This document shows, one piece after another, positions 6,955 through 48,422 of a stretch of DNA of 48,422 bases. The DNA lies in contig JAVYLZ010000003.1 of assembly GCA_038740245.1 (NCBI GenBank), forward strand, positions 1 through 48,422. Direction: 5' to 3'. The stretch's first letter is position 1. Each line of letters starts with the position of its first letter. Both the position numbers and the translations under genes were made by a program. This DNA comes from Candidatus Micrarchaeia archaeon (GTDB lineage Archaea > Micrarchaeota > Micrarchaeia > CAILAH01). The notes below the pieces were generated by a model. It did not search any database. It saw nothing but the letters and a program-made list of their open reading frames with translations, and was not told the origin of the DNA.

Positions 6955-7359
6955 ATGGAGATAAACCGTGAGGAAATCCAGAAGATTGCTGTTGAGGCTG
7001 AAAATCTTCAGCGCATGCACAAAATGCTGCGTGACCAAATAGTTGCGCTCAACATGTCTGCACTTGAGGCAAGTGTAACTATAAACTCACTTGAGAAGAT
7101 AAAGGGCGGCGAGCACTCGCTGGTCTCGCTTGGCTCAGGGGTTTTCGCCAGCGCATCAATGAGCAAGTCAAAGTACGTGCTGCTTGATTTGGGGGGCGGC
7201 ATATGCGGCGAAATGTCCTCTGAAAAGGCCATAGAGCTTCTTAAAAAGCGGATAGAAGACTCACGTGAAATCACCAAACGGCTTGAGGAAGACCTTAAGC
7301 GCGTCCAGAACTCGCTTATTGAGCTTGAAGGCAGGGCGCGCAGGTATATCCAGCAATAG
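6955..7359 (+). CDS. pfdA: Prefoldin alpha subunit
   Basis: The architecture is coiled coil, beta hairpins, coiled coil (..LEASVTINSLEKIKGGEHSLVSLGSGVFA...YVLLDLGGGI..EMSSEKAIELLKKRIE..). It lies in the conserved position before ftsY. Confidence 0.8.
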   Translation: MEINREEIQKIAVEAENLQRMHKMLRDQIVALNMSALEASVTINSLEKIKGGEHSLVSLGSGVFASASMSKSKYVLLDLGGGICGEMSSEKAIELLKKRIEDSREITKRLEEDLKRVQNSLIELEGRARRYIQQ

Positions 7360-7367
7360 TGGTGCCG

Positions 7368-12354: not shown

Positions 12355-12365
12355 CTTATACACAC

Positions 12366-31993: not shown

Positions 31994-32017
31994 AGCGGAT
32001 TACATTCATACGGAAAG

Positions 32018-32027
32018 TTTTTATAGA
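32018..32027 (-). promoter_or_regulatory. TATA box upstream of the Kef-type gene
   Basis: The minus strand reads TCTATAAAAA about 25-34 nt upstream of ATG 31993. Confidence 0.5.
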
Positions 32028-32044
32028 TAGGATGCACTAACTCA

Positions 32045-32512
32045 ATAGGCGATGACGACACCACCCCAGATGAGCGCACCCTGTCGCGGCTTGAAGCGCC
32101 GCATATGGGGGTGTTAGCAATGACTGCCGGAGTAACTTCTGAGCCCATGCGAGGATGCTCGCGATAACGCGCTGCGCCGCATTTCCGCTGACGCGGGAAG
32201 CGATGCCTTTGGCTTCGCCAAAAGTGTGCCTCACTGTCCAGCGAATTATTTTTAAAAAATGTTTCTGATAGCTTCGCTTGGTTGTATGGGTTGCGAAGCC
32301 AAGCAAACCAAAAGGTTTGCGGGCAGTGTTGCCGATGGCAACAAGTTGTAGGCATCGCCTACAACCCCTTTCGCGAATGCGAAAGTGTGGGGGCGCTGGA
32401 ACCCACAAAATACGGTTGCTGGGCGTTTTGAAATGACCTTGCAAACTGACGTTTGCTGGCCACACGTGCGGAGCACGTGGTGGACTTCTAGCCCCCTTCG
32501 TTAGGAGTTCTG
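32045..32512 (-). ncRNA. Candidate structured noncoding RNA locus (one or two transcripts); identity and strand are unresolved
   Basis: At least ten short perfect hairpins lie within about 470 nt, and there is no protein-like ORF. A TATA-like ATTATAT (32534-32540) lies just beyond the upstream stop codon. A central T5A6 tract sits at 32248-32259. Confidence 0.35.
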
Positions 32513-32552: not shown

Positions 32553-35426
32553 CTAGCCGCAATCATTGCAGGCCATCCCTGCAACATACTTGCAGGCATT
32601 ATTGCAGTGCTCTATCTCATTCCACCCGATTGGCCCCCATACGCACACAATATCGCTGCACGAATCATATAGCGCTGCTGAGCATTCACTGGCGCTTGAC
32701 CCGCTATATGCACCACCCGCAGATGGGCACCACCCAGAAATGCGGTTGTATTCTGTTCCCTCACTTATAATTCCACTTTTTCTCCCAATCTCAAGATAAA
32801 CGTTGCACTGCTGGATAAGGCACTGCGGGCTTATCTGCTTTGGCGGTGCGGCCGCCGCTGGCGGCTCATTGTAAGGGCATCCAGGATCCAGCTCAATCGG
32901 TGAGGAAATAGCAAAAATGGTTTCTTCTGAAGAACCCTTAACGTATCCCTCCCCCATAAGGTATACTGAATCGCCTGCAAGTTGTCTAAGTGCAACATTC
33001 TTGAACGTCTTTGCGTTATTCTCGCACGCCGTGTGCCTCTTGTCGCAGTTTGAATCAAACATGGGCTTTATTTGCATCCAGAATGGATCCTCCACAACAA
33101 ATACTTTTGAAGACAATTCATTGCAAACAACTGACTTGCCTCCTGAACGGCAATTGTAACTTGTGCCTGTGCAGACAGACCCAACATCAAGCGAAAGGCA
33201 TTTTGTTGAGATATTCCCTCCTATCAGATCGCATTTGCTGGAGAGAGCTGCATAACACGAATCTGCATTAGGATACCCAAGAGAAATTGGGTTCAGCCAG
33301 CACGCAATAGTTACGGCTCCAGTGCAGTTATTACGCGTATCCGTTGCGATTGCAATGCACGAGTTGTAGAAGCACTCGTTGAACATCGCTTTTTGCGAGA
33401 ACACTAGCATATTCTCAACATTTGTTGATTCTGAAACAATGACCTTGCCGGTGCACCCTTCCTCGGCGCGCATCTCAAACAGCTTGACGCGCTTATCGCC
33501 TTCACCGAGGTATGAGCACCCTGAATAGTACGTGGACTCTATGGCGGACTTTGAGCCGTATATCAGTGGCTGGCCGCGGTATACCACAAGAGGGGTGTTG
33601 GTGCCTGCAAGTGTGCGCATAATATTTGCAAGATACTTATAGCCAAGCTTCCATCCTTCAGAAGATGAAAGGCCGGCAATGAACGAGTCATATGCTGGGC
33701 GCGTTACATTCCCTTTCAAATATTTCTCAAGCAGAACTTTCTCCTCGGCGCTGAGCTCGGTTTCAGAGTTGATGCATTCGGCCGGGGGCGCAATGCTTAC
33801 CACACGGCACGAGCCGTCTGTGCACACATCCTCCATACATTTGCGGTCCTCCTCATCAACTTTGTTGTCGTCGTTGAAGTCATACCGCTTGTCAAATTGC
33901 TTGAGCGCAAGGAACTGGTCAAACAGCTGCAGGTCATAGCCGTCTATGTAGGTGTCGCCGTTGAGGTCATATGTTGCGCCGTTTGGGTTGCACTGCTTCA
34001 TGCAGTCCAAGCATATCTCAGGAGGGCCCTGCTCAAATATCTGGAGGTCAAGACCGCTTTGCAGGTATTCATTATATTCTTGCGGCACGAAAATGTTCCA
34101 ATTATAACCATCGCTCGTGCACGAATAAAGCAGTTCTCCAAGAGTACATGGTTGCTGCAGCATTATGATTTCATCGCATACGATCTCAATGCATGTGTCA
34201 TCTCCGTTTGAATCCGCAAGATTATCTGACCCAGTACCGCCGCACGTGCCTGAGCCAATTTCCATGCACTTCTCAAGCGGCCCGCACTTTGACGGGTCAG
34301 CCTTGCACTGGGGGGATGCGCACGAGTCATCGCACACGTACCCAGCGGGACACGTGTTGCACATCTGCTTGCAGGAGTATGCGGTCTTTTCTGGGGAAGT
34401 GGGCGTGCACACCGCATCAGGGCAGTTTATCTCAACTGTGCCGTCGCTTATTGTGCAGAGCTGGCCGGCCTGCTCTGCAGTGCATTCCTTATCCACACAG
34501 GATGCGCACGCGCCTGTCTTTGGGTCCTTGCACCCAGTCCCCTCACAGGACTCATCGCATACAAAGCCGGCAGGGCACTTGTTGCATACCTCCTTGCACA
34601 CAAACGCGGACAGTGAAGTGTCTGTGGGAACGCACAGCGTATCAATGCACGGGTAAGAGCCGCCCTTGTCGGATGTTATCTTGCAGTATTCGCCCGCCTG
34701 CCACTGCGCTTTTGTGCACGGCTTGTCCGTGCATACCATACAGCTGCCGTCAGAAAGGCAGCAGCCGTTCGGGCACTGCTCACACACATAAGACCCAGGA
34801 AGACCGCAGGATTGTTTGCAGGTATGCTTTTTCAGTGCAGTGTCATAAACGCACGTTGAGGGTATGAGGCAGCCTACACAGTTGCCGGAAGCATCACATA
34901 CCTCACACGGCTCGCCCGCTTTTTCACAGGGCAGTGACTCGCACGTGAGCGGCTCGCACCTGCCCTTTGAGTTGCATGCATATCCATCACAGCATGAGTT
35001 GACATCGTTGGGGTTGCACAGCATCCCCTTTTCACAGGGCTCGCACTTGGACTCGGCGTTGCAGGAGAACCCGTTACAGCAGGGGCTTGACTCGCTGCAA
35101 GTATCTGGATTTACGCATACGTTCTGCGTGCATTCCGCCGGATTATCTATTTTGCAGCATATCCCTTTTCCCTTGTCAAGGTAATATCCTGCACCACATT
35201 TTAGATAGTCGCAATATTCAACGTAATTCCCCTCTTTGTCCTGCACACAGCAGCCGCACTCGCTTGAGTACCCCGCTGGGCACTGGACCGCCTCAGGCGG
35301 GCAGCCGCTGCCGCCTACACCTTGCAGCATCCATAAAATTGCAAGCGCAATTATCACTAGGAGTATAAGCGCAATCAGGGGCCTGAAATCCGCTGTTCCT
35401 TCCTGGTCGCTTCCCATAAGCATCAA
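32553..35426 (-). CDS. Secreted or anchored hyper-cysteine protein (957 aa) with a dockerin-like Ca-binding repeat pair and a C-terminal globular domain
   Basis: The N-terminal hydrophobic segment is PLIALILLVIIALAILWML. Dense Cys modules run to about aa 545. The sequence DLNGDTYIDGYDLQLF...DFNDDNKVDEEDRKCM resembles a dockerin repeat pair. The start overlaps the upstream stop. Confidence 0.7.
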   Translation of the reverse strand: MMLMGSDQEGTADFRPLIALILLVIIALAILWMLQGVGGSGCPPEAVQCPAGYSSECGCCVQDKEGNYVEYCDYLKCGAGYYLDKGKGICCKIDNPAECTQNVCVNPDTCSESSPCCNGFSCNAESKCEPCEKGMLCNPNDVNSCCDGYACNSKGRCEPLTCESLPCEKAGEPCEVCDASGNCVGCLIPSTCVYDTALKKHTCKQSCGLPGSYVCEQCPNGCCLSDGSCMVCTDKPCTKAQWQAGEYCKITSDKGGSYPCIDTLCVPTDTSLSAFVCKEVCNKCPAGFVCDESCEGTGCKDPKTGACASCVDKECTAEQAGQLCTISDGTVEINCPDAVCTPTSPEKTAYSCKQMCNTCPAGYVCDDSCASPQCKADPSKCGPLEKCMEIGSGTCGGTGSDNLADSNGDDTCIEIVCDEIIMLQQPCTLGELLYSCTSDGYNWNIFVPQEYNEYLQSGLDLQIFEQGPPEICLDCMKQCNPNGATYDLNGDTYIDGYDLQLFDQFLALKQFDKRYDFNDDNKVDEEDRKCMEDVCTDGSCRVVSIAPPAECINSETELSAEEKVLLEKYLKGNVTRPAYDSFIAGLSSSEGWKLGYKYLANIMRTLAGTNTPLVVYRGQPLIYGSKSAIESTYYSGCSYLGEGDKRVKLFEMRAEEGCTGKVIVSESTNVENMLVFSQKAMFNECFYNSCIAIATDTRNNCTGAVTIACWLNPISLGYPNADSCYAALSSKCDLIGGNISTKCLSLDVGSVCTGTSYNCRSGGKSVVCNELSSKVFVVEDPFWMQIKPMFDSNCDKRHTACENNAKTFKNVALRQLAGDSVYLMGEGYVKGSSEETIFAISSPIELDPGCPYNEPPAAAAPPKQISPQCLIQQCNVYLEIGRKSGIISEGTEYNRISGWCPSAGGAYSGSSASECSAALYDSCSDIVCVWGPIGWNEIEHCNNACKYVAGMACNDCG

Positions 35427-37087
35427 CCTACCACTATCTCCTTCGGCGCTGTAAAGCAGTTATTAATCTTATTTAGGAGACAAAACTTTTCCAGCTTAGT
35501 GCAGAAATTCCCCCCTACTTCTTCCTTATAATTTGAGACAATATATTCATACGGAGATATCATTGAGGTATCCACCCCAAAAACCGAGCCGTCCTTCTTA
35601 TAGAAAGTATACTTGTGATTATTCGGCCCGAGCTTTTCATACTGTGCACGCAAGCATACATAAGTCAGTAAAGTAGTTCCCTTAGTGACGTAAGCATAGC
35701 CGGACTTGCATATATCCGGGGGCACTTGGAGAGCACCTGCAGGCAAACCGTCATTAGGCACTATGTAAATGCAGCATTTTGATGGGTCCTTGGTGCACGC
35801 AAACGTCCCCCATTCGCACATAAGGTTCGGCGGTGCATGGCAGAACTCCTTTTTACCGGAGGGCGTGTCAAACACCATGCACGAATCGCCCACCATTGGC
35901 GCACCGGTGCATCCCTGCGGGCACTTGAACGTGTTTGGTGGGCATACGCTTACCGTCTGCGTGCCGTATGTGCAGCACGTGCACCCCTGCACTGTTTTGC
36001 ATGGATGGCCGCCTTCACCGCACGCACACTGCCCTGTGAACGCATCACAGCACCCTGTCGGGCATTCAGCAGTGTCGCAGGCGACCTGCCCCTCCGAGCA
36101 GCCGCCCTTCGGCTTGCACACAAACTCGTTTGCTGACTTGTCCTTTGCCGCGCATACCGTATTGTCGGTGCACTTTGAGCACTTATCGCTCCCAGTAGAG
36201 CAGAGCTCGCACGGCTCACCGGGGTTTGTACAGGGAGCGCCTTCACAGTTGCCAGTATATTCACAGCTACCCATTACACACACGCCGCCCGCACAGCACT
36301 CAGAATCCTTTGAGCATGATTTTTCACAGGACTCACATACCTTCTTCTCAAAATTGCAAGCGTAGCCGTTGCAGCATGGGTTATTTTCATCACAGTACGC
36401 GCCTTCCTTGCAGCCGGCACACTTGCCGTTCACGCACTGGAACCCGTCGCACGCGCACATCTGGCCCTGTAAAGGATTGCACGATGCAACGCAGTTCTTG
36501 CACGAGCCGGAGATGCACGCCCAGCCGTCACAGCAAGCACCGGGCTCACCTGGGTTGCAGGCCTTCTCACATGAAGTGCACTTGCCAAGATAGCATTCAT
36601 ATCCGCTGCAGCAGTCCTTAGCGGCGGTCTCAAGCATGCACGGCTTTGCCTCACACGCAGCGCACTTACCGTTAAAGCAGCTCATCCCGGAGCAGCAAGG
36701 GTTCTGCTCATCGCAATATGCGCCCTGCTCGCACCCCTTGCAGTCGCCGCCCTCGCATTTGCTGCCCGCACAGCAGTCGGAATCAGATTTGCAGGGCTCA
36801 ACTGCCACACATACAGCTGGACCTGATGCACAATCCTGCGGGTTTGACAGCGAGCAGCATTTGCCGTCCATGACCGCATACCCGCTGCACGATTTGCATA
36901 TATCAACGGAGCCGTCCGCGTTCTGGACACAGCAGCCGCACGGGCTGTCCGCACACGCATACGAGCCCTCAGGGCACTGTGCGCTGCTTGATGCACACAA
37001 CGCCTGCACTATCAATAACGCAAGCACGCCCGCACCAAGCAGTGCAAGCAGTTTCAGGCCGTTGTCATCCTCATCGCCAAGAGCCAT
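35423..37087 (-). CDS. Secreted hyper-cysteine protein (554 aa) with tandem knottin-like modules; paralog of the 957-aa protein
   Basis: The signal-like N-terminus is LKLLALLGAGVLALLIVQALCASSSAQ. I hand-counted about 86 Cys. There are at least seven tandem modules of the form C-x5-8-CC-x-G-x2-C-x2-3-G-x-C. Confidence 0.7.
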   Translation of the reverse strand: MALGDEDDNGLKLLALLGAGVLALLIVQALCASSSAQCPEGSYACADSPCGCCVQNADGSVDICKSCSGYAVMDGKCCSLSNPQDCASGPAVCVAVEPCKSDSDCCAGSKCEGGDCKGCEQGAYCDEQNPCCSGMSCFNGKCAACEAKPCMLETAAKDCCSGYECYLGKCTSCEKACNPGEPGACCDGWACISGSCKNCVASCNPLQGQMCACDGFQCVNGKCAGCKEGAYCDENNPCCNGYACNFEKKVCESCEKSCSKDSECCAGGVCVMGSCEYTGNCEGAPCTNPGEPCELCSTGSDKCSKCTDNTVCAAKDKSANEFVCKPKGGCSEGQVACDTAECPTGCCDAFTGQCACGEGGHPCKTVQGCTCCTYGTQTVSVCPPNTFKCPQGCTGAPMVGDSCMVFDTPSGKKEFCHAPPNLMCEWGTFACTKDPSKCCIYIVPNDGLPAGALQVPPDICKSGYAYVTKGTTLLTYVCLRAQYEKLGPNNHKYTFYKKDGSVFGVDTSMISPYEYIVSNYKEEVGGNFCTKLEKFCLLNKINNCFTAPKEIVVG

Positions 37088-37129
37088 ACATATTGCACCT
37101 TACTATTATACATTCCAACTATCATCTTC

Positions 37130-40100
37130 CTACTTGCACTTATATTTCTTGTAAAGCGCCATCATTTTTGAGCCGTCGCACTGCGTGCCCTCCTGCCCCT
37201 CAGGCACCTTCCTGTCGCTGAATGTCAGGAGCGATTGCGGCACACCTCCGTAATAATAGCGGCCGCACTGGTCAAACCACGCGCGCGTGTAGGGATCCTT
37301 GCTGTAAGTATTCGGTGGCAACACTGCGCCCGGATCAACGCTTCCTGCACCAATGCCGCCGCCTATCCCCCCCAAGCCTGGGAGGCTGCCGCTCCCGCCT
37401 AAACCGCCCAAACCGGGTATGTTGCCCGCACCTAATACTATGCTAGAGCCTAAATTATTGCCTCCAAACAGCGAGCTAAGGCCTGACATGCCCGCAAACT
37501 GGAACCCGCCTCCTCCGCTTGTGCCACTAATATCAACCAAATTCCCATATTTAAACAGGAGAGATGCGCCCTTGTCCGAAGAGCTCTGGAATGACCAGGC
37601 GCCAACTTTCTGCGAGCCATCAACCCCACCCTGCCCAAATGGAAGCTTGTAGAAAGAAGAGGTGGTGTAATAGAGGCCATAATCACTGCCGGCAGAATAT
37701 GTTGATACGGGCGTGCACGCACCGTCTATCAGGCAGTATTGACCAATACCAATCACCCCTGAACCGGCAAGCATTATGAAGTCCTCTTCATATAGCTGCT
37801 GCACCTGTTCCATAATCTCATCGTGCGTCCAGCACGATTGCCGCTCGTCCATATTCCGGTTCAGCCCAAACCCAAGTATTATTGACGGGATGTCATAGTA
37901 TTTCATAGCATATTCTGAAACGTTGCGTATCCCGTCCAAGTAGTTTGTAAGCTTGCACTGGCCCCTGTATCCAGGCCCGGGGTCATCTATTACAATAACA
38001 AACCCTATCAGGTCTATTGATTCATTTTCTTCAGATTCCACAGCAAGCTGTATCCGAGTGCGCCTAAACGTCTCATTTATCGTCTCTTTCATTGCATTTA
38101 TTTCACGGTTCGTGAGCTTTGTCCCATTAACATGTATGTAGAACGGCAATGTGGATATGCAGCGCTGCATGCGCACGGTGTTATTGCCGGGGCAGTAATA
38201 GCTGTATTCGCATTTGGCGTTTGCATTGCTGCACTGTATTGCCCCCCCATCCTTCTTGCACTGGTCCTTTGGTATTGTGCTGTCGCACATCTTTGTTGCG
38301 CCTTCCCAGTAACAGCAGCATCCTTCTTGGTTGTAATCCTTATAGCTTATGTTCTGCTCAATGTTCTCGCTCTTCGCACCATCAGTACCATCCTTAGGAA
38401 CTTCACACAGCGAATTATCACTATACCCTGTTGCCTGCCTGCAAGTTATCTCTATAGTAGCAATTTGGCTCGCCAGGCCTTCAAACACTAATGTCTTGCT
38501 CACACCGCTTCCGGATGGATATTTTATGTGCGAATTTGGCTTGGTTGTGCTGTCTGCACCCGTACCGCCGCTCCATATGGGGGGAACTTTAACTTCAATT
38601 TCGGTAGGTGCAGAAGATTCAAATTCATTGCCAGGATATGATTCGCCCGCACCGAGCTCAACAAGGCCGTCTACACTCACAAGCTCCGCGGTTATTATTG
38701 CAGGTGTTGCCGGCGCGCGCGGATTCAATTGCAGGTTCTCATATGCGGGATTGTCATAGCCGGGCTTAGGCTCGCTGATGGCCTTGGTTATGTTGGCAAG
38801 CATATTTACTGATTCTGTGCCGCCAACACTTTCCTCGGTGGGCACAAGCCACTGTGAAGTAAGCCCATCCTTAAAGCCGGCTTTGGCATTCTCCACAGGG
38901 ATGCACTTGCGCTCGCCTTTGCTTAGCGTAATCGTTTCAGGGGATGTTCCACCTGTAACCACCTCGCGTGAGTCGCGGCTGTAATCCATATTGGTTATGC
39001 ATACGCCCGTTGTTGCACCTTGCGTTATGCTAATGCTTGAAGGGTCAAACGTGTTCATGTTAAGCGAGACCTGCGTTACAAGGCGCTCAACAAGCACGTA
39101 AATCCTCCTGCCGCTGTGCGGGTTGTAAAGCATATACTTTGCCGCCCTCTCATTAGGATTCAGCGATAGTTTCAACAAGTGGGTGTCGCCACTTGAAATT
39201 GAAGCGCGTGAATAACCATAAGAAGACATGCGTGCAGGTGAATTGAGGTAAGTGTCAATGTCCCTCGGGCTTATTGAGTAATCGTTGTAGTTATTTATGC
39301 AATTAGCATAGTTTGTGGTGCCATCAGCGTTTTTCTCACCAAAGCACGCTGCATTCATCCTGTCAGAAACCAGTTTCTGGAGGTCGTTTGATTGGCCGCA
39401 GGGGTCAACCTTGCCTAAGTACCATACTGCAGTGTCAGGCCCGATATTTCTAAGGGTAAACGACGAACCGTCTGGCACTACTATCTCATCGCCGACCACA
39501 TTCACTGTCATATTGTAAAGGTAAATTTTGACAATATCTTTTGAGATATCCGCAGAATAATTTCTGTATCTCCGTCCACCATCCGGGAATGTTGGGATTG
39601 AATAGCTTACAGAGCCAAGCTTTGTGTCTTCCAGCTTCTTCACGAAAGGCGATATGTGCGAAAACACACTGGTAGCAACTTTCATCTCTATTGTGCCGGC
39701 AGGATCTATCGGAACCTCATTATAACTGCCCACCAGCCCCGCATAATATGCCGGCTCATAAACCGCAAACGTGCCCATCACTTCAGGTGCATACTGCTTC
39801 TGGCCCAGCGGCGGTATTATGTCCTGTATGCCGTTGTATGTATCCTTGCCGTAGCACATCACTTTTATGCCTTTTTTGCTCTTTACCGTAAAGGTCTGTG
39901 TGAGCACATAACCCTTCCCCTGCTCAAGAATCTTTGCGCCTAAATACTCCGATTCGGCAAATTTGTCGGTTGCACTCTCAATGTCATTTATGAGGTAGAG
40001 ACGGCCGCCAGTGAACGCAGTTACAGGTATGCTGCCATACCTCGGCACTGCATAATTGTTTGGGTGCACGTATGTTTCTGTGCATTCGCACTTACCATTA

Positions 40101-43100
40101 TTATTGCTAGATCCAAGCTTGCACATTGAGCACGTGCTCGTAATGGTGCCGCTTACTGGGTCAAACCCGGGCAGCACATACTCATAATATGCGGGCTTAC
40201 CTGCCGGCTGGTCTACAAAATCATATATCTTGTCCTTGTTGTAGTGGGGCTCGTTTGCGTATGGTGTTGCCACAATTTTTGCGAGATCATATTCTGACAA
40301 ATCGGTTCTCGGAACTTTAACCCATACGCCATAATCATCAGACTTGTGGCCGAAAGGCGCAGGGTTTGAGCGGCACCACCACACATCATATGAGTTGCTG
40401 CAGTCTTTATGGTTCATGCAGCCATTAAAGCACTCCGCCTCACCGCTGCAAGAATCTTTGCAAAATTCCTCAAGCGTGCCGCACAAAGTTCCAAACTGGC
40501 TGTAAAATACCGAGCTACCATCTATAATATCACAGTCCTCCCCGCATTCATTGAAATCAATCTCAAGCTCGCAATAATCGTTACCACTGCCTGTATTATC
40601 ACATAGTCTATTCCCTGCTGTATCATACCCACAGAAATAGTTATCATTATTATAATCACTCATTAAGCCACCGCTACCTGGCAGGGGCTCCCATACTCCC
40701 TTATCATTAATCCATCTCTCAATCTTTGGCCCGTTATTCTTTTCGGAATCCTCGCTATAATTAAGCTGGCCCGGAGTAAACGTGAGCCCGCCTTCTGTTA
40801 TCAGCTCACCGTTTGATACACGAATCCGCCTCCAGTCTGGATTGTCCGGGTACTGGAATGTTAAGTACTGGCCGCTCTTATATACGCTAATGTCCCCAAC
40901 AATCTGCGGCAGGATTGGATATGACGGCGCACCGTTTTCTGAGGATGAATGGATGTAATCAATTTCATTAGAGTAATCAAGAGGCATTACAAGTTGGCCA
41001 CCTGAAGTTCGTGCGACTATAATTGGCCAGGCGTATGAAAAGTCCTTGGTTTTCTTTATTGTGCCGGACATATTGAATGGCACATACATGCTCTTCTTTA
41101 CAGCAGCAGTTTGATAGTCCTCCTTAGTAGCATAGTTCCACCATATCTGTGGATACACCGACCTGCTCTTGTTAATTACTATTGAGCCACGCCACACATC
41201 ATAATACTCCAGGTTAAAGAGCTCATCGTTTATGCTCCACGTTGGGTTGGGGGATGGCGGCAGCCGCCTTAACAGGACACTATAGTCCCCAACATTATTT
41301 ACCCCAAAAAGAAGATAGGGCGCGCCATCTTTGGATTTAACTTGTTGATTGCTGAACAGCCGTACCGTATACGCTGATTTTGTGTAGTTCAGGTTGCTTA
41401 TAAAGCCTGGCGCAAGCTGCAATGAACTGCCGTACACTTTTGCGTAAGTACTTTCTAAAGGAGTTCCGGAAATGAAAGGTACAAGCGCAGTAACTTCATT
41501 TTGGCCCACAAATGGCCTATTCAAGTATGCGTTTATGTTAGTGTACCCCATATTGGGCAAAAGCTCAATGTCTGCAAGCTTTTTTGCCGTGCCTACATAT
41601 TTGTCATGGTTCTCCAAAGCATCCAGTATTGCAACAGGAACTGAATAAAGCTCCATATTGTAAGCCGTGTAATAATCATTCGCACCTGCGATATTAAACT
41701 CGTTTTCAGCGTCTTGGCGGATCATTGTGCAGTATTTGGATGGATCATCAGGCCTAAGCATAATCGCACGCGGCTCAAAAGCAAGGTTTTGCACGCTGAG
41801 CGCATAATTATTACGTGATTCGGGTGGGCTAACACTATACTCATCATAAGAGAAGTTGAGCTCCTGCACGGGCTTGACTGGTTTTAAGATTATTTTCTTG
41901 GTTGCCGAACCCTTGGTTAGAGTGAACACAACTTCCTTGTCTGGCATGTCAAACTCCCAGCGCACGCATTTCGGAAACAGGAAATCTCCAACCTTAACCA
42001 TTCTTGATTCGCTGCAAGGTATCTCAGGAGACGACGACACAACTGCATTCACATCATCAAGCGTTACGTTGACAAGTGAGCCGACCACCGCACTGTAATT
42101 CTCCTCCTCAGTCGGGTTCTTCAGCACAACTTCGGCATCGCCTATCCGTGAATACAGGAACACCGGCAAGCTTTGGTGGTAGGCGAGCATTTCGCGTGCC
42201 TTCATAAGCGTATCCTCATCAGGCACACCTGATATCACCTGCACTCCGAAATCAAGCGGGCTTTCACCAACACCCTGCCGATACTCAAGCGCGCTTTTAT
42301 CAGACGGCTTTATAATCAAGAGCCCTAACTGCATAAACTGCGTTTTCTCTGTAAGCTTGATGCCAGAACCGCCGCCAATAAGCGGCCTCCCTGAAACATC
42401 ATATCCCACCGGTACGTTGCCATAATACCCTGCAACAGCTGATGTGACATTGCCTTGCAATGATTTTGTTTTCCCGCTCTCAAAGACAACCTGTGTTCTT
42501 GAAAACATTGAGCTAAAATCAACATAAGTGCTGTTTTGGTCAAAAGTGTTTTTGTTTGGGTTATTTCTACCAAGCGTAAGACGGTTGCCATCCTCCTTCA
42601 AACAAAGAGTTTTATTTTCATAAGGCAAAATATAACTCTGAGAAACAAAGCCAGATATGTAAAGTGTAACTGTCTCATTGATGTTGTTTTTAACTATGAT
42701 GCACGGGGATAACGGCTGCATATAGTTCGTTGCAAACCCGCTGTCGTAAATGTTAAGCTCGTTGTAAACAGTGTAATCATAGTCATCAACGTTCGTGACC
42801 GTAATGCTGCCATGCGAAGATGCACCGGTTATCTCTTTTGGCGGCGGGATATCAATCTCCAAATAGGATGGAATCATCTTACCGTTTACAATATACCCTG
42901 CATTGGGCGGGCCAACCGCCACAAGCACGTTGACGCCGCTTTCATTGTGCCGCATTAAGTAAAGGCCTTCTTGATCCATGGTAAAACAGGACATATCATA
43001 TGCCTTTACGGATAAGACCCTTGCACCCGTTTTTAGAAGTTCTGCCGATGTGCTTGCGAGCACTGACGACTTTGTAACTTTTATTGGCCCGATTATTGTG

Positions 43101-46100
43101 GCATCACTGTCAACTGCGTTAATGCACACATATCCTCCCGTGCCTACCCTCCCAGAAACCGGCAATGCTGCTGTGGCATATACATCCACTCTGAATACAT
43201 CACTTGTATTAACATAAAGCGTGAACTTGCCACCGGTATCAGTATCAACAAAATTGTATGTGCCATCCTCCCTCGTGAAGTTGTAGGTGCAGAACCTTCC
43301 AAGCGGGGGCACCTTAAACTCGCCAGAAACGCCGGCCGTGGAATCATAGGTTAGCGTGCGGTTTATGTTCACTGGGTTCTCAATGCACACCAAATCATCA
43401 ATCTTTGAAAGTGCTGTTGGTGGCGTGTATGCATAATCCCCTATGCGGATTGTTGAGATAAGCGAGGCAGGGTATACCACAGCATACCCGTAATTGCCCG
43501 GTATCTGGTAATCAGAGATGCGGTAAATGCCTGCACCGGGCAGGTCAAAACAGCACTCCAGCCCGTAATATGATGATTTCGCCTCAATAGGTACGTATGC
43601 ACCTGTGTAATTGAGCTTCTTCTCAAGCAGTATTGTCTTCTGCGCATTCGGGACTTCGTTGCGCACGCACAGCTTTGAGCCCTCGGCAACCTGTATCGCG
43701 CCGGGCAGGAACCACGGGCTTGCTGCAGAGCCAACCATGCGCAACACAGTGCCGTCCGCATATGCAACATATGTGAATGGATGGTCATCAACATAATCTA
43801 TGTATTCAGCAGGGGTATTGACAAGCGCTATGCGGTCGCCGCCCTTCTCCTCTATTTTCAGTACCGGATACAACTGCGCACCTTCTATTTTAATTGGGCC
43901 GCTGGGCCACACCGGCCCAGGTACGTAAAGCGTGCCCTGCGGTGTAATGCCGATTTGCACGCCGCCTAAAGAAGACTGGCCTCCTGGTGTAAGTGAGATC
44001 CCACCGATTGTTATCCCGCCTAAAAGAATTGGGGGCAACAGCGGGATGCTCTGCTCTGGGATCTGCGGGGTTACTTCAGGGGGGATATAGCCCTCCATAT
44101 ACCCTGATGCGAACACCGGATCCATCTCAATATAGCCATCGTAAAGGAATAGCGGCTTGCCATTGTATAATTTCACGATATTCCTCCCGCCAACGTTGGC
44201 TGTTGCTTTTTCAAGCACTATTTGTGCGCGTGCGTATTCGTTTTCATCCAGCCACAAAACTGAATATGTCTTGTTAATTTTCGTGTTGGGCCCGACAGGC
44301 AGGCAAACACTTTCACCTGGAGGCACCGTCACAAGCTCGCGCTTAACCGATGGCATAAGCGGCATCTCTATATCTGAAGAGGCTATCTTTATGGTGTGGT
44401 TTGAAACGCCCATATTGTTGAAGCACAGGCGTGAGCCCTCACGCACAGTTATGGCGTTTGGGTCAAACGGCAGGCCGCCGGCAGTTATCTTTACAGCTGC
44501 AGGGTCTGATGGCTGGCACAGGCTGCGTGCTATCAAGTAGTCATCAAAAGTCGGCCCCTGCCCAATCATAAACATTGGTATTTTAGTATCCCTGCTTTCA
44601 AGCAGTGCTTTGAACACACCGCCCGTGAAATTGTGCACCTCATACAGATAGCCGCCCTGTGAAGACGTGTCTGCTATGCGCTCACACTGTGTATAGTAAT
44701 ACTTGGTCGGGTTGCCGGGCCGTGTGCACTCATACGTTGCATATATCGGCTTGGCGCACGCGCACTGGCACACAAAATACCTGATATTTGCATCGTTCAA
44801 ACTTCCTTTATCGCAAACCTTAACCGTTTTTGAGCTCACGCATTTGCACTTATCTTCGTTCTCCTCACAATATTTGCACTTGGCTGGCTCTGAACTGCAT
44901 GAGAACAATTGGCTTGGGTTTGTCACATTGCGGTATACCAAACATTCCTCCTTGGTCATAAGCTTCCCGCTAATTGCACGGTCAATCTCAACACAGGGGG
45001 TGAGTCCCGTGCAGCAGGGTGCTTTGGTTTCAGTTGAAGTTGAGGTGTCATCACTTTCGCAGGCATTATCAGGGTTCAACTCCGCTTGCGTGTAGCCACG
45101 CTCACTAACTTCACTCGCTTCACTGCCCATCGTTGTCTTCTTCTTTGCAGCTTCCTTTTGTGTGCACTCGTTGCAGGCATCAACGCTTGACTTGACGCCT
45201 TCCTCCGCAAGGCTCTCAAGCGACTGCTGCTCCTGCTGGCACACATCTTCACACCCCTTAATAATGCCGCTTTCTTTTTGTGCATTCTTCTCATAGCTAC
45301 TCGCTGGCTCTGTAAGCTTCTTGTAATCCAAAGAGAGGTCCCGTATCACAACTGAGGGATTAGTGTCGGCATTAACAACTGGATTGTACTTGAAATTCAT
45401 TGCATTGTAGGGGTATTCAATGGGCATTGCGGCCTTGCACTGTTCTGGGAGGCCTGCAATAAGTATCCCCCCGTCCGCACACGTCCTGCACCCGTTTTCA
45501 ACATCGCAGTTATCAAGCGAGTATGTGCCGCTGCGTTGCATGCTTGAGATTGCATTGCATATGAACTGACCAGAGCTCGTCTCAGTATTGCCTGAATCCA
45601 GCTTGACCTTGCCCATTGAGCCGATGCCATCGTAATACTGGCCGGTTATTGCGTTCTCGGCTGGATAGAATGTGAGGTACGCATACAAATTACCTTCAAA
45701 TGGGCAAGCCGCATCGCCAGTGTAGTATAGCGCGGAATCCCCGCTGCAGTCATATTCAAGGCATAGGGTATCAGGGTATTCAAGCTCTCTGCACTCATCA
45801 CCATAGAGGGAATAGTACTTGTTGCCCTGCGGGTCATCATTTGCGCCTTTGAATGCAGGCGAGCATTCCCAGCGCACGTTGCTCTGATACTGCTGCTGTG
45901 CAATCGCCATACACGTGGCTGCCTTGCACTCCACGTCCGGCGCCTCCACACACTTATGAGTAAGCTGGTCGCACATCATGTTGGGGCTGCAGCCCTCAAT
46001 GTTTTGGCATTGCGCATCCGTAAGGCAGCCGATATCACACTTGGCTTTTTCTTTCTCAACGGTAATGCTTTTCGGGAGCTCGCTTCGCCCATAGTATTTC

Positions 46101-46159
46101 AGGCAGCCAGCGAGCACAAGCAGGCCCACAATGAAACATACGAACAATGCCCTGCGCAT
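37130..46159 (-). CDS. Giant (3009 aa) putative surface lipoprotein or adhesin
   Basis: The frame is uninterrupted for 9 kb. The N-terminus MRRALFVCFIVGLLVLAGC is a signal peptide with a lipobox. A Cys-rich head is followed by many beta-rich modules with paired Cys. A Gly-rich tract lies near the C-terminus. Confidence 0.8.
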   Translation of the reverse strand: MRRALFVCFIVGLLVLAGCLKYYGRSELPKSITVEKEKAKCDIGCLTDAQCQNIEGCSPNMMCDQLTHKCVEAPDVECKAATCMAIAQQQYQSNVRWECSPAFKGANDDPQGNKYYSLYGDECRELEYPDTLCLEYDCSGDSALYYTGDAACPFEGNLYAYLTFYPAENAITGQYYDGIGSMGKVKLDSGNTETSSGQFICNAISSMQRSGTYSLDNCDVENGCRTCADGGILIAGLPEQCKAAMPIEYPYNAMNFKYNPVVNADTNPSVVIRDLSLDYKKLTEPASSYEKNAQKESGIIKGCEDVCQQEQQSLESLAEEGVKSSVDACNECTQKEAAKKKTTMGSEASEVSERGYTQAELNPDNACESDDTSTSTETKAPCCTGLTPCVEIDRAISGKLMTKEECLVYRNVTNPSQLFSCSSEPAKCKYCEENEDKCKCVSSKTVKVCDKGSLNDANIRYFVCQCACAKPIYATYECTRPGNPTKYYYTQCERIADTSSQGGYLYEVHNFTGGVFKALLESRDTKIPMFMIGQGPTFDDYLIARSLCQPSDPAAVKITAGGLPFDPNAITVREGSRLCFNNMGVSNHTIKIASSDIEMPLMPSVKRELVTVPPGESVCLPVGPNTKINKTYSVLWLDENEYARAQIVLEKATANVGGRNIVKLYNGKPLFLYDGYIEMDPVFASGYMEGYIPPEVTPQIPEQSIPLLPPILLGGITIGGISLTPGGQSSLGGVQIGITPQGTLYVPGPVWPSGPIKIEGAQLYPVLKIEEKGGDRIALVNTPAEYIDYVDDHPFTYVAYADGTVLRMVGSAASPWFLPGAIQVAEGSKLCVRNEVPNAQKTILLEKKLNYTGAYVPIEAKSSYYGLECCFDLPGAGIYRISDYQIPGNYGYAVVYPASLISTIRIGDYAYTPPTALSKIDDLVCIENPVNINRTLTYDSTAGVSGEFKVPPLGRFCTYNFTREDGTYNFVDTDTGGKFTLYVNTSDVFRVDVYATAALPVSGRVGTGGYVCINAVDSDATIIGPIKVTKSSVLASTSAELLKTGARVLSVKAYDMSCFTMDQEGLYLMRHNESGVNVLVAVGPPNAGYIVNGKMIPSYLEIDIPPPKEITGASSHGSITVTNVDDYDYTVYNELNIYDSGFATNYMQPLSPCIIVKNNINETVTLYISGFVSQSYILPYENKTLCLKEDGNRLTLGRNNPNKNTFDQNSTYVDFSSMFSRTQVVFESGKTKSLQGNVTSAVAGYYGNVPVGYDVSGRPLIGGGSGIKLTEKTQFMQLGLLIIKPSDKSALEYRQGVGESPLDFGVQVISGVPDEDTLMKAREMLAYHQSLPVFLYSRIGDAEVVLKNPTEEENYSAVVGSLVNVTLDDVNAVVSSSPEIPCSESRMVKVGDFLFPKCVRWEFDMPDKEVVFTLTKGSATKKIILKPVKPVQELNFSYDEYSVSPPESRNNYALSVQNLAFEPRAIMLRPDDPSKYCTMIRQDAENEFNIAGANDYYTAYNMELYSVPVAILDALENHDKYVGTAKKLADIELLPNMGYTNINAYLNRPFVGQNEVTALVPFISGTPLESTYAKVYGSSLQLAPGFISNLNYTKSAYTVRLFSNQQVKSKDGAPYLLFGVNNVGDYSVLLRRLPPSPNPTWSINDELFNLEYYDVWRGSIVINKSRSVYPQIWWNYATKEDYQTAAVKKSMYVPFNMSGTIKKTKDFSYAWPIIVARTSGGQLVMPLDYSNEIDYIHSSSENGAPSYPILPQIVGDISVYKSGQYLTFQYPDNPDWRRIRVSNGELITEGGLTFTPGQLNYSEDSEKNNGPKIERWINDKGVWEPLPGSGGLMSDYNNDNYFCGYDTAGNRLCDNTGSGNDYCELEIDFNECGEDCDIIDGSSVFYSQFGTLCGTLEEFCKDSCSGEAECFNGCMNHKDCSNSYDVWWCRSNPAPFGHKSDDYGVWVKVPRTDLSEYDLAKIVATPYANEPHYNKDKIYDFVDQPAGKPAYYEYVLPGFDPVSGTITSTCSMCKLGSSNNNGKCECTETYVHPNNYAVPRYGSIPVTAFTGGRLYLINDIESATDKFAESEYLGAKILEQGKGYVLTQTFTVKSKKGIKVMCYGKDTYNGIQDIIPPLGQKQYAPEVMGTFAVYEPAYYAGLVGSYNEVPIDPAGTIEMKVATSVFSHISPFVKKLEDTKLGSVSYSIPTFPDGGRRYRNYSADISKDIVKIYLYNMTVNVVGDEIVVPDGSSFTLRNIGPDTAVWYLGKVDPCGQSNDLQKLVSDRMNAACFGEKNADGTTNYANCINNYNDYSISPRDIDTYLNSPARMSSYGYSRASISSGDTHLLKLSLNPNERAAKYMLYNPHSGRRIYVLVERLVTQVSLNMNTFDPSSISITQGATTGVCITNMDYSRDSREVVTGGTSPETITLSKGERKCIPVENAKAGFKDGLTSQWLVPTEESVGGTESVNMLANITKAISEPKPGYDNPAYENLQLNPRAPATPAIITAELVSVDGLVELGAGESYPGNEFESSAPTEIEVKVPPIWSGGTGADSTTKPNSHIKYPSGSGVSKTLVFEGLASQIATIEITCRQATGYSDNSLCEVPKDGTDGAKSENIEQNISYKDYNQEGCCCYWEGATKMCDSTIPKDQCKKDGGAIQCSNANAKCEYSYYCPGNNTVRMQRCISTLPFYIHVNGTKLTNREINAMKETINETFRRTRIQLAVESEENESIDLIGFVIVIDDPGPGYRGQCKLTNYLDGIRNVSEYAMKYYDIPSIILGFGLNRNMDERQSCWTHDEIMEQVQQLYEEDFIMLAGSGVIGIGQYCLIDGACTPVSTYSAGSDYGLYYTTSSFYKLPFGQGGVDGSQKVGAWSFQSSSDKGASLLFKYGNLVDISGTSGGGGFQFAGMSGLSSLFGGNNLGSSIVLGAGNIPGLGGLGGSGSLPGLGGIGGGIGAGSVDPGAVLPPNTYSKDPYTRAWFDQCGRYYYGGVPQSLLTFSDRKVPEGQEGTQCDGSKMMALYKKYKCK
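37343..37516 (-). repeat. Gly-rich low-complexity tract within the giant protein
   Basis: The tract reads GGGGFQFAGMSGLSSLFGGNNLGSSIVLGAGNIPGLGGLGGSGSLPGLGGIGGGIGAG and lies about 70 aa before the C-terminus. Confidence 0.8.
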
Positions 46160-47005
46160 TTACACATTCCCCACACTAACTAATTCCATGCTAATGCTTT
46201 TATTCGTGCCGTCATCGGCAGTTCCACTGGCATCCATGCGGAAAAGAATGGGTATATCGCTGCCAACCCATGCCTCCATCGTGCCGCTCCTGTATACCTT
46301 CACCGCATACTTCTTGCCGCCAAGAGCCACAGCATCATCACGGACAAACGCGCTTTCGCTTGCGAGCTCGCTGCACACAAACCATATGGGATAGGAATTG
46401 CATTGTGCGCGCTTAGTGTCGCCATAGGGAAAAGAATACTCAACCTGCACGCATTTTCCGTCAAGGCCATACGTATACCTCGCATTTGTGGATATCTTCT
46501 CACCGTTATATATAGCCCGCGTGCTCACTGAATGCACTGCCGTTGTGCCGTAATACCCCTGAAACGTGCTCTGCGTGTAAATGGGTGTGCCGTCATAGAT
46601 TATCCTGTAGGTAGTGTCAAGGGACAGCAAGCGCACCGGATCGCCGAGAGGGGTGCACGAATAGTTGTATGAAGGGGGGCCCTGCTCTGTTTGGTTGCCC
46701 TGCAAAAAGCCTCCTCCCAGGCCGACAATCTGGGGAAGCGTGCCGTTTGGCTGGTATGCCGGGAGATTGCTTAACTTATCAGTGGCGGCAGTTGCAGCTG
46801 TCTCAATAAAATCAATTTTTGGGGATGGCTGCGGGAGAATGTAGTTAAGGGCGATAACCACAATGAATAGGATTGCAATCGCCAGGGCGAGATTTTTGGC
46901 CTGCGGTGCAGAACTTTGCGGGGCACTGGTGTGGCCGGCAATTGCACGCGCGACCCAATATGCATCACGTGCCTTTCCAATGTGTCCCTTGCCAATATCC
47001 TTCAT
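46160..47005 (-). CDS. Bitopic membrane protein with an N-terminal TM anchor and a beta-rich extracellular domain
   Basis: The TM segment is LALAIAILFIVVIALNYIL. The stop abuts the start of the giant gene with 0-nt spacing. The start is ATG 47005; TTG 47017 is an alternative. Confidence 0.55.
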   Translation of the reverse strand: MKDIGKGHIGKARDAYWVARAIAGHTSAPQSSAPQAKNLALAIAILFIVVIALNYILPQPSPKIDFIETAATAATDKLSNLPAYQPNGTLPQIVGLGGGFLQGNQTEQGPPSYNYSCTPLGDPVRLLSLDTTYRIIYDGTPIYTQSTFQGYYGTTAVHSVSTRAIYNGEKISTNARYTYGLDGKCVQVEYSFPYGDTKRAQCNSYPIWFVCSELASESAFVRDDAVALGGKKYAVKVYRSGTMEAWVGSDIPILFRMDASGTADDGTNKSISMELVSVGNV

Positions 47006-47020
47006 CAAAGCCACCAACCG

Positions 47021-48133
47021 CTATATTACGCGCACCATCCCGCGGCCTATGTCCGCAATGTTGCCCCCAAGTATCTGCGTTAGCGAGCGCGCAAACAGGA
47101 ACGTGCCAACCATCGCAACAAACGGGTAGAAATATGCATACAGCCGTATACGGCCGGCAGTATCCTGTGAGAACCCGCCAACATCGCTGGAGATGAGCTT
47201 GCCGTAGCCGCTTGAGCCTGCTGGCTTATTGCCCTGCGACTCCTCAATCAAGGATTCAATTGCCGTGGGGTCCGCAGGGCACATCTTCTTGCCCTCTTTA
47301 ACTGTTTCCTCCTCTTCCTCAACAATTTCAACGGCAACCGAGCACTTGTCCGGAAGCGGGGGAGCATTCACGAACAGCACTGTAAGCAGGAACGGGTATA
47401 CAAAATAAAGCGAGATCGCAATGCCCATAATCGCTGCACCGCCCCCGCGCGTGTACGGGAATGCGCGGAGCAGAATTCCAAGTGGTAGATATACGGTAAC
47501 CATTGACGCCTCAATCCACTGCAGGAAATTAATCTGGAAATAGGCGGCAAGCGAAAGCCACAGTATTTCTTCTGCATCCATTATGGCAACCATAAGCTTT
47601 CCCCAAGCGTCGGTTGCAAGATCAAGTATTACGGGGATTGGCAACGGTACTAATGCACCCATCACATTGAGACTTACGCCCATACGCGGTATCATCTCAT
47701 AAGCCTGCAGCTTAAGCAGCCGGTTATATTCGGACTTGAGGCATTTCAGCGAGCTCAGCAGGTAAACGTATGAGACATCAAATATGTTTACTTGGTAACC
47801 GGTCTTGCCAAGTATCTGCTCTGCTGCTGCACCGCCTATCATATCCCTGAAATCCTTGTTGCCTGCGATTATGAAAGATTCTGTTGTTGCAAAGGCCATA
47901 AGAAATGTTATGAGAAGCACCGTGGCCGCCAGCTGGAAGAACTCGCGTCTTACAGCCATCTCAAGAGTGCGCGAGCTGAATATCTTTGATGCCATATAGA
48001 GTATTATGAGCATGAAGGCGATTATCATTACCACTGACATTGCTATACCATACCACTCAAGTGGCATGTTCTGGGCCAATACCTGTGCAGAAGTTTCCCA
48101 TGGCGAAAGTGCAACATCTATGCTCGTCATCAT
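47021..48133 (-). CDS. Polytopic integral membrane protein of 370 aa with about 7 or more TM segments
   Basis: It has multiple long hydrophobic segments and an acidic loop (EIVEEEEETVKEGKK). Its start overlaps the upstream stop (ATGA). No family was recognised from sequence alone. Confidence 0.6.
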   Translation of the reverse strand: MMTSIDVALSPWETSAQVLAQNMPLEWYGIAMSVVMIIAFMLIILYMASKIFSSRTLEMAVRREFFQLAATVLLITFLMAFATTESFIIAGNKDFRDMIGGAAAEQILGKTGYQVNIFDVSYVYLLSSLKCLKSEYNRLLKLQAYEMIPRMGVSLNVMGALVPLPIPVILDLATDAWGKLMVAIMDAEEILWLSLAAYFQINFLQWIEASMVTVYLPLGILLRAFPYTRGGGAAIMGIAISLYFVYPFLLTVLFVNAPPLPDKCSVAVEIVEEEEETVKEGKKMCPADPTAIESLIEESQGNKPAGSSGYGKLISSDVGGFSQDTAGRIRLYAYFYPFVAMVGTFLFARSLTQILGGNIADIGRGMVRVI

Positions 48134-48422
48134 ATCGCCCTCATTATGCCGGAGATGTCAATCTCAGAGCCAAGCGTGCCGGCCAGACTGCGCACCAGCG
48201 CCGCGGTTATAAGCACCTGCAGTGCGGGTATGAAGAACACAAGCAGCATCACCGAGCCGTAGGCATTGTAAACATCAATGAAATACTCATTAATGCTTGC
48301 AGTATCCATGCCTGAGGACAGCCCTAGTGCTGTGAGCCCTAATAAACCACTAACACCTGATACTATAAGACCTGTAACACTTGCCATTCCGGCTAGGGCG
48401 CCTGCAAACATCACTGCAAGCA
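48130..48422 (-). CDS. Small two-TM hairpin membrane protein; possibly truncated by the window edge
   Basis: The first hydrophobic helix is GALAGMASVTGLIVSGVSGLLGLTALGL, followed by a polar loop and the second helix SVMLLVFFIPALQVLITAALV. The frame stays open upstream to the window end. Confidence 0.5.
   Translation of the reverse strand, partial: LAVMFAGALAGMASVTGLIVSGVSGLLGLTALGLSSGMDTASINEYFIDVYNAYGSVMLLVFFIPALQVLITAALVRSLAGTLGSEIDISGIMRAI

Follow-up and report, generated by a model that had tools for sequence, protein, structure and literature searches.

Gene content and conservation of the locus

The window analyzed here is a stretch of 48,422 nucleotides from contig JAVYLZ010000003.1 of a Candidatus Micrarchaeia metagenome-assembled genome (MAG; GCA_038740245.1). 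The last third of it encodes, on the minus strand, part of a conserved gene cluster built around a family of five-transmembrane (5-TM) proteins that we name HEX. We refer to the six minus-strand open reading frames (ORFs) in transcription order as g1 to g6. The window proteins are 100% identical to QXU54_00900-00920, all of which NCBI annotates as "hypothetical protein", and none of the six has a match above curated threshold in Pfam, NCBIfam, PADLOC or PHROGs. An ORF check confirmed g1-g6 on the minus strand at the coordinates of a first-pass annotation made from the letters of this DNA, and the junction sequences bear out the tight packing that it described. g1 (48130..48422, with its frame open to the window edge) and g2 (47021..48133; 370 residues; QXU54_00920) overlap by 4 nucleotides in ATGA, and a gap of 3 nucleotides, or 15 if the NCBI ATG start at 47005 is used, separates g2 from the bitopic g3 (46160..47017; 285 residues, or 281 from that ATG; QXU54_00915). 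g3 directly abuts g4 (37130..46159; 3,009 residues; QXU54_00910), a giant predicted surface lipoprotein, in the sequence TAAATG with 0 nucleotides between them. A 42-nucleotide gap then leads to the disulfide-rich g5 (35423..37087; 554 residues; QXU54_00905), which overlaps the Cys-rich g6 (32553..35426; 957 residues, 956 in the NCBI model; QXU54_00900) in TTGA, or by 1 nucleotide if the ATG start is used. The first-pass annotation had emphasized that one unit unites membrane components dedicated to it with a giant lipoprotein and with disulfide-rich proteins outside the cytoplasm, and this stands.

The same annotation had predicted that the genes run off the right edge of the window toward further components. 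This is what relatives show: in every locus that encodes a g2 homolog, the g2 ortholog is preceded by additional genes. Across the gene maps of 17 loci one order recurs: a divergent protein of ~1100-1400 residues, six HEX paralogs, a bitopic g3 of ~250 residues, a giant of 1,900-3,700 residues and one or two Cys-rich proteins. This order is shared by L004, L006, L009, L012, L013, L014, L016, L018, L020, L021, L025 and other loci, and wherever the examined locus of a relative is long enough, homologs of the components appear together in this order. That these are real genes follows from their conservation and synteny across more than 15 other loci. In the relatives, the gaps are -4 to 11 nucleotides inside the hexad and -4 to 57 nucleotides across the whole cluster. 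The cluster is therefore a conserved, operon-like assembly of at least 12 genes in Micrarchaeota, and the window region is its promoter-distal two-thirds. What had been called a six-gene operon is indeed one conserved, tightly packed unit, with the gene count set too low. The upstream part (HEX 1-5 and the divergent lipoprotein) is assigned to the window genome from the loci of its relatives; ~6.9 kb of the 55,362-bp contig lies outside the window, a length that fits the missing five HEX genes (~5.5 kb).

Orthologs of g2 within Micrarchaeota share 31-90% identity with it. Close g2 orthologs among GTDB species representatives all belong to this phylum (14 of 14) and include one in a Micrarchaeum MAG (L017). 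The small-genome archaeon that had been suspected as the host is accordingly a Candidatus Micrarchaeia, a DPANN lineage. Neither the cluster nor the HEX family is described in the published literature that we searched, which covered Micrarchaeota co-culture papers, an archaeal dark-matter survey and the Ced/Ted papers.

The divergent protein of ~1100 residues that opens the cluster has a signal peptide with a lipobox-like A-G/S-C; its only Pfam matches are weak ones of coiled-coil type. A small gene with a PhageMetallopep domain (PF18894; 125-129 residues) adjoins the divergent lipoprotein gene in L004 (250-633), L006 (542-931) and L009 (50-427), and in L004 and L006 it stands next to Trm56. 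It could be a processing peptidase of the cluster or a mere neighbor. At the other end, orthologs of g5 with 41-53% identity lie directly 3' of the giant in L004, L006, L013 and L014. Two more distant loci depart from the common arrangement. In L024 (GCA_020056635.1, 1-21047), the six-paralog array is accompanied by a giant (more than 2,341 residues) that is transcribed divergently. Downstream of the hexad, the g3, giant and Cys-rich set is replaced by a DUF1405 membrane protein and by three CARDB-domain proteins with a family-B DNA polymerase in their midst; the hexad is thus found with more than one set of surface proteins. In L027 (1-17293), a distant HEX member, P0147, has a 228-residue N-terminal extension and is surrounded by proteins of 398, 336, 1178, 813 (CARDB), 355 and 1476 residues. 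This locus may represent the cluster in rearranged or reduced form.

HEX, a family of six ordered membrane paralogs

HEX consists of six tandem paralogs, g2 and the five genes immediately upstream, so named here; the window holds the end of HEX 5 (g1) and the entire HEX 6 (g2). The C-terminal ~95 residues encoded by g1 share 72% identity with residues 306-367 of a 367-residue protein in L009, and g1 aligns likewise with the C-terminal ends of the proteins at position 5 in L004, L006 and L001. Because it aligns with the C-terminal end of a ~367-residue protein in relatives, g1 is, by this comparison, an edge-cut fragment comprising the last ~96 codons of a polytopic HEX protein, and not the small two-TM hairpin protein for which it had been taken. 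The "membrane trio" of hairpin, polytopic and bitopic proteins gives way to a different pattern, in which six paralogous 5-TM proteins are followed by one bitopic protein.

In each relative, g2 is similar to all five upstream proteins, with within-locus E-values of 1e-5 to 1e-28. When HEX proteins are compared across loci, 209 of 252 best hits link proteins of the same paralog position, where chance would give ~42, and this positional orthology holds even where the g2 orthologs share only 31-35% identity. Since it persists in such distant loci, the sixfold duplication and its order are ancient and have been maintained, a pattern that speaks for six non-redundant subunits. A HEX profile searched against 1.84 billion representatives recovered 2,444 clusters at E<=1e-3 and 1,144 at E<=1e-10, and a word-index profile search with the paralog alignment yielded almost no additional members. 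Pfam returned no consistent family match among 168 scanned HEX members, and profile searches of PDB sequences with HEX found nothing.

Hydropathy and Lys/Arg profiles, together with the secondary structure of an AlphaFold2 model, give the HEX proteins five TM helices in an N-out/C-in orientation. A helical ectodomain (residues ~86-190) lies between TM2 and TM3, the cytoplasmic loop is short and basic, and the outer loop between TM4 and TM5 is acidic and contains Cys. The model of g2, built on 134 sequences, has a pLDDT of 81 and a pTM of 0.76. The family signature, which in g2 reads VYLPLGILLRAFPYTRGGG (residues 214-232; 47438..47494, minus strand), covers the end of TM3 and the cytoplasmic loop and has the consensus [Y]LPxGxxLRxFPxTRGxG. 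Among 134 HEX members, P217, G219, R223, R229 and G232 are conserved at 97-99% and P247, just downstream, at 100%. At the start of TM2, E64 is an acidic position conserved at 96%, and arginines are conserved in the cytoplasmic loop.

HEX paralogs also occur in fused form. In L018, L021 and L022 a Cys-rich domain is fused N-terminally to HEX paralog 1, giving proteins of up to 1,310 residues with 12% Cys, and the location of these ectodomains at the N-terminus supports the N-out orientation. Such fusions tie disulfide-rich ectodomains physically to HEX proteins. A further fusion was seen in HEX paralog 3 of L007 (4929-7796, 955 residues), where the added domain matches NCBIfam NF033662, acidic double-disulfide repeat-containing protein (E 6.5e-21), a Cys-rich module unlike those of g5 and g6.

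Giant and disulfide-rich surface proteins

All extracellular components of the cluster have N-terminal hydrophobic export or anchor segments. g3 has a single hydrophobic segment at residues 43-61, which makes one TM helix, followed by an ectodomain of ~200 residues with conserved Cys. Its family (13 members) always lies between HEX 6 and the giant, with C185 and C211 invariant; g3 has no match in the PDB. The giant g4 has orthologs of 1,888 to at least 3,131 residues at the same position in 11 loci. Its hydrophobic segments are limited to an N-terminal signal helix and one weak segment. The signal peptide ends in the lipobox L-A-G-C that had been reported (residues 16-19; 46103..46114, minus strand; MRRALFVCFIVGLLVLAGC), and its G18 and C19 recur in 90% or more of 12 giants. 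From this conserved match to the L-[ASV]-[GA]-C pattern, g4 is predicted to be lipid-anchored.

No Pfam, NCBIfam or PDB match above threshold, no Walker A motif and no BLAST-detectable repeats were found in g4. A cupredoxin-like beta-sandwich module could be recognized at residues 548-645 (44225..44518, minus strand), which score 19.8 bits against a cutoff of 27 for Pfam Cupredoxin_1. A hidden Markov model (HMM) built on this best-conserved module from 12 orthologs picked out two weaker modules at residues 815-847 and 902-945 (43325..43717, minus strand; independent E-values 2e-4 and 1e-2) and a fourth at residues 2363-2425 (38885..39073, minus strand; 3e-7), the equivalent of which is present in the orthologs of L004, L006, L013 and L016. 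The motif F-x-P-x-x-I-x-V-x-x-G-x-x-L-C-x-x-N occurs in g4 at residues 565, 817 and 911. Compared with plastocyanins, the g4 ortholog profile gives an E-value of ~0.01 over the N-terminal half only. The module consensus shows no evident Cys/His/Met copper site and no C-x-x-H-x-x-x-x-M, and H588 is conserved; judged by its residues, the module resembles cupredoxin in fold only.

The two proteins that follow the giant are as rich in Cys as the first-pass annotation had it: g5 has 86 Cys (15.5%) and g6 has 98 (10.2%), both even counts. g5 combines an N-terminal hydrophobic anchor or signal with an ectodomain in which tandem Cys modules, five serial matches to the pattern C-x5-8-CC-x-G-x-x-C-x4-6-C-x2-C, occupy residues 99-254 (36326..36793, minus strand). 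Their spacing is knottin-like at the level of sequence. An N-terminal anchor is present in g6 as well. The first third of this protein is rich in Cys and a paralog of g5 (31% identity over ~380 residues), and the C-terminal half is less rich in Cys. A g6-like protein of 925 residues is present in the closest relative, L035. The dockerin-like motif ascribed to g6 is present as a pair of Ca-binding-type loops, DLNGDTYIDGYD ... DFNDDNKVDEED, at residues 486-528 (33843..33971, minus strand), although at 20.2 bits it falls below the Pfam threshold for Dockerin_1 (PF00404; 22.9). Among the cluster proteins scanned, none has a cohesin domain. Residues 604-675 of g6 have a weak, repeat-type match to the adhesin-like beta-sandwich 6xi1.

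Evidence for and against an origin from type IV secretion

VirB6/TrbL proteins are the polytopic channel subunits of type IV secretion systems (T4SSs) and conjugation machines. The view that the proteins of this locus belong to no characterized family holds only at curated thresholds; below them, HEX recurrently resembles CedE and CedA, the VirB6-like channel proteins of archaeal DNA transfer. Among 134 HEX members, 13 match NCBIfam CedE (best E 1.2e-5) and six match CedA (best E 2.8e-5), and the next most frequent family in NCBIfam (18,950 models) matches three; in a set of 34 paralogs, CedA matches one at 8.5e-5. Residues 165-232 of the HEX member P0041 align with positions 132-198 of the 260 in CedE. 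This region, the TM3-loop-TM4 core with the HEX signature, has the same relative position in both proteins and is the most conserved core of HEX. We also compared HEX profiles with TrwI and with a profile of eight VirB6 sequences (TrwI plus seven diverse plasmid proteins). The best local pairing in hhalign sets the HEX signature on the invariant GP...W-x-P-T-basic loop of VirB6, over 18 columns only. Structural comparison by Foldseek gave weak pointers in the same direction: with a first, lower-confidence model, the best TM-scores in the PDB were to TrwI/VirB6 chains of the R388 T4SS (0.28/0.36; TrwI/VirB6 is solved as 7o3v and 8rtd) at a non-significant E of ~4, and with the confident model the top match in BFVD, a viral structure set, was a phage TrbL (E 0.08, probability 0.51, TM 0.22).

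CedE is a five-TM paralog of CedA, and both are structural homologs of VirB6 with roles in DNA import and export in Sulfolobales (PMC11868833). For the VirB6-like CedA and TedA themselves, it took profile-profile methods to reveal the tie to VirB6 (PMC9905601); extreme divergence is thus normal in this superfamily. We judge it probable, at somewhat better than even odds, that HEX proteins are very remote members of the VirB6/TrbL-CedA/CedE superfamily. They are not members of either NCBIfam family, CedA or CedE, because their scores lie far under the cutoffs.

A number of results weigh against this relationship and against a T4SS-derived machine. At ~14-30 bits, the CedE and CedA scores come nowhere near the cutoffs set in NCBIfam (400 bits for CedE, to which P0041 scores 13.6), and g2 itself has no match to either model (CedA/CedE, NF041796/NF053657) in the NCBIfam scan. 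Pfam TrbL (PF04610) matches none of 34 paralogs at E<=1 and none of 134 representatives at E<=0.01. The hhalign probability of HEX profiles is 0.2% against both TrwI and the eight-sequence VirB6 profile. A Foldseek search of the PDB with the confident model returned generic helical bundles (best E 0.42), with no VirB6 in the top 50. Composition bias could contribute to matches between membrane families. Conserved genes in and beside the cluster include no VirB4/CedB-type ATPase, coupling protein, relaxase or pilin. Relatives of a DUF87 ATPase encoded in the window (68 metagenomic loci) are found near a g6-like gene only in the closest, L035 (74% identity), and not in 25 other loci of sufficient length.

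This HerA-like DUF87 ATPase (24471-25988, minus strand; 505 residues) scores 169 bits to HerA_Thermprot and 95.5 bits to CedD (cutoff 600); it has no TM segment and is soluble. Its proximity to the cluster is local synteny, and it finds no support as a conserved motor of the system, since among relatives the link is confined to L035. A protein of 211 residues with no Pfam match is encoded just upstream (26060-26695, minus strand), where a NurA partner might be expected. An ATPase had also been anticipated immediately upstream of the window genes; in relatives, that position is taken by five HEX paralogs and the divergent ~1100-residue lipoprotein, with no P-loop protein. More broadly, L004, L006, L009, L003, L024 and L025 have no P-loop protein within 10 kb, and only in L007/L008 does a DUF87/AAA_10 gene stand three genes downstream. 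An ATPase hidden in the giants or in the divergent protein was discarded for lack of a Walker A motif, the single regex match being an isolated one in the L025 giant. A reading of g3 as VirB8-like was dropped as well (hhalign probability 0.07%). As for a two-helix pilin of the CedA1/CedA2/TedC type, the apparent hairpin gene g1 is a truncated HEX paralog, and no small genes were called inside the clusters, where the gaps are too short for one.

Elsewhere in the window the surroundings are archaeal housekeeping genes, among them SecY, FtsY, SRP54, TFE, CorA and the HerA-like ATPase. The genes for export machinery lie within 20-40 kb of the cluster: FtsY (7359-8783, plus strand), SRP54 (28980-30302, plus strand) and SecY (10873-12363, minus strand), the last apparently inside a run of small co-directional genes. 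Their closeness to an export-dependent cluster is probably a coincidence. Directly downstream of g6, two overlapping alternative small ORFs of 126 and 142 residues (31975-32465, minus strand) have no family matches. Scans for sigma-70 promoters and terminators returned no more than the shuffled expectation, with a bacterial consensus that is uninformative for an archaeon, and tRNA and Rfam scans were empty.

Alternative explanations and proposed function

We infer that the cluster encodes a T4SS/Ced-derived, hetero-oligomeric membrane platform that carries giant surface proteins for host contact or transfer, and we give this interpretation a probability of roughly 0.45. The cluster could instead be an envelope-building or adhesin module unrelated to T4SSs. 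In that case HEX proteins would be novel anchors or assembly factors for large lipoproteins of an S-layer-like or adhesin kind, the likeness to CedE and CedA would reflect convergence on a short TM-loop motif or composition bias, and the apparatus would decorate the cell surface with no role as a channel or in transfer. We consider this doubtful though well within reach. The confident HEX model has no significant PDB fold match to VirB6 or to anything else, the hhalign probability against VirB6 is as low as noted above, and neither an ATPase nor a pilin is conserved nearby. The partners, moreover, are all surface proteins, with their lipoboxes, Cys-rich modules, beta-sandwich repeats and dockerin-like loop pair, and CARDB-domain surface proteins come after the hexad in L024. 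However, the recurrence of CedE and CedA is specific (13 and six members, against at most three for any other of the 18,950 models), the CedE match sits on the most conserved core of HEX, and the weak structural pointers to VirB6/TrbL are independent of it. Six non-redundant paralogs in a fixed order also suggest a defined hetero-oligomer and not simple anchors.

Lipobox proteins beside polytopic membrane proteins are typical of uptake systems, and E64 at the start of TM2 and the arginines of the cytoplasmic loop are conserved. DPANN archaea depend on their hosts for metabolites (PMC8784108). These observations raise the alternative of a permease-like HEX complex for nutrients or other substrates, with the lipoproteins and Cys-rich proteins capturing host-derived compounds. 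We regard this as improbable: HEX has no similarity to transporter families in Pfam or NCBIfam, no ABC ATPase is encoded nearby, proteins of 3,000 residues far exceed the size of substrate-binding proteins, and the HEX model, a bundle of long helices from which an extended ectodomain projects, does not have a transporter-like repeat fold. The remote VirB6/Ced-like similarity of HEX would also suit an integrated conjugative or viral element with its own transfer apparatus, as would the PhageMetallopep-domain gene that adjoins the cluster in three relatives and the GC content of central g4 (0.46-0.48), which is slightly below the window mean. Against such an element, the same chromosomal neighborhood (Trm56 and the metallopeptidase upstream) recurs in L004 and L006, with the metallopeptidase also in L009; even relatives with g2 orthologs of no more than 31-33% identity to that of the window keep the paralog order; and housekeeping genes flank the cluster in the window. 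The loci scanned contain no integrase, relaxase, VirB4 or coupling protein, and 2.9 million viral contigs yielded zero HEX matches. A mobile element is, in our judgment, very improbable.

How a T4SS/Ced-derived platform might work can be sketched from the parts. We envision a scenario in which the six non-redundant HEX paralogs join in a single hetero-oligomeric membrane channel or platform, for which the VirB6 pentamer and the CedA-CedE pair would be precedents. The helical ectodomains of HEX, together with g3, would dock the lipid-anchored giants and the disulfide-stabilized proteins into an extracellular stalk or adhesin. The resulting structure could contact the host archaeon and support adhesion, possibly also the transfer of macromolecules, and the ATPase that energizes it, if any, would be encoded elsewhere, like CedB in Sulfolobales. 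Our estimate for this mechanism is about 0.3.

A central question about DPANN archaea is how they recognize their hosts, attach to them and obtain resources from them, and to our knowledge no molecular components of the host-contact machinery of Micrarchaeota are known. The cluster, conserved across the Micrarchaeota sampled, is a concrete candidate. New here are an uncatalogued 5-TM family that always comes as six ordered paralogs coupled to giants and hyper-cysteine proteins, and its remote but specific link to the VirB6/CedA/CedE channel. If that link is true, the known range of T4SS-derived machines in archaea would extend beyond Crenarchaeota; if it fails, the cluster would be a categorically new surface apparatus. 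Micrarchaeum is a genus with a cultured member, and the presence of the cluster in a Micrarchaeum MAG means that the hypothesis may be directly testable if cultured strains carry it too.

Comparison with known systems

Cryo-electron tomography of Micrarchaeota co-cultures has revealed intercellular proteinaceous nanotubes and contact filaments at the host interface, the genes for which are unknown (PMC11329633, PMC8975820). The phylum is the same, and the HEX cluster occurs in a MAG assigned to Micrarchaeum (L017); the link between those structures and the cluster is purely circumstantial. It is tempting to speculate that a hetero-hexameric (or 5+1), DPANN-specific, T4SS-derived HEX channel, together with the giants and the disulfide-rich proteins, could be the intercellular tube or bridge seen by tomography, importing host DNA, nucleotides, lipids or proteins with no adjacent VirB4 ATPase. 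We consider this unlikely as it stands. If true, a descendant of a conjugation machine would have been repurposed as a feeding or contact organelle.

The SPEARE giants of nanohaloarchaea carry a VirB4/TraG-like ATPase domain and have been proposed to act in host interaction (PMC10266531). As with g4, they belong to a DPANN symbiont and are giant, Sec-exported and cell-anchored, with an ectodomain of beta-sandwich modules, and they are genetically coupled to T4SS-type parts (PMC10266531). They offer a precedent in another DPANN lineage for the reading favored here. No sequence similarity was detected between SPEARE and g4. g4 differs in having no C-terminal TM helix, ATPase domain or Walker A motif, and it is not followed by a VirB4-like gene. 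In the HEX cluster, the part that resembles a T4SS would be the channel subunit, six times over, and not the ATPase.

The Ced and Ted DNA-transfer systems of Crenarchaeota, in which CedA, CedE and TedA form the channel, CedA1 and TedC are the pilins and CedB, CedD and TedB the ATPases, differ from the HEX cluster in several respects. They have one or two channel paralogs, compared with six in tandem here. The HEX cluster has no pilin gene of the CedA1/TedC type and no conserved CedB/CedD/VirB4 ATPase nearby, and it contains giant lipoproteins and hyper-cysteine proteins that are absent from Ced and Ted. Its host is a DPANN symbiont, whereas theirs is a free-living crenarchaeon. What they share is that both are archaeal, chromosomally encoded and, putatively so for the HEX cluster, derived from T4SSs. 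CedE has five TM helices like HEX, distinct paralogs coexist (CedA with CedE), and the ATPase may be encoded away from the channel genes.

VirB6 itself offers a further parallel. It has five TM helices in an N-out/C-in orientation, a large extracytoplasmic loop separates TM2 from TM3, and the protein oligomerizes at the base of the T4SS stalk (7o3v). Equivalents of VirB2-5 and VirB7-11 are absent from the HEX cluster. HEX proteins nevertheless have the same helix number and orientation, a large extracytoplasmic loop after TM2 and, in the hhalign pairing, a conserved Pro/Gly and aromatic-x-P-T-basic loop at the equivalent position. Tandem multiplication of such subunits also has a counterpart in bacteria that live as obligate symbionts, the Rickettsiales, which carry four or five tandem, size-variable VirB6 paralogs.

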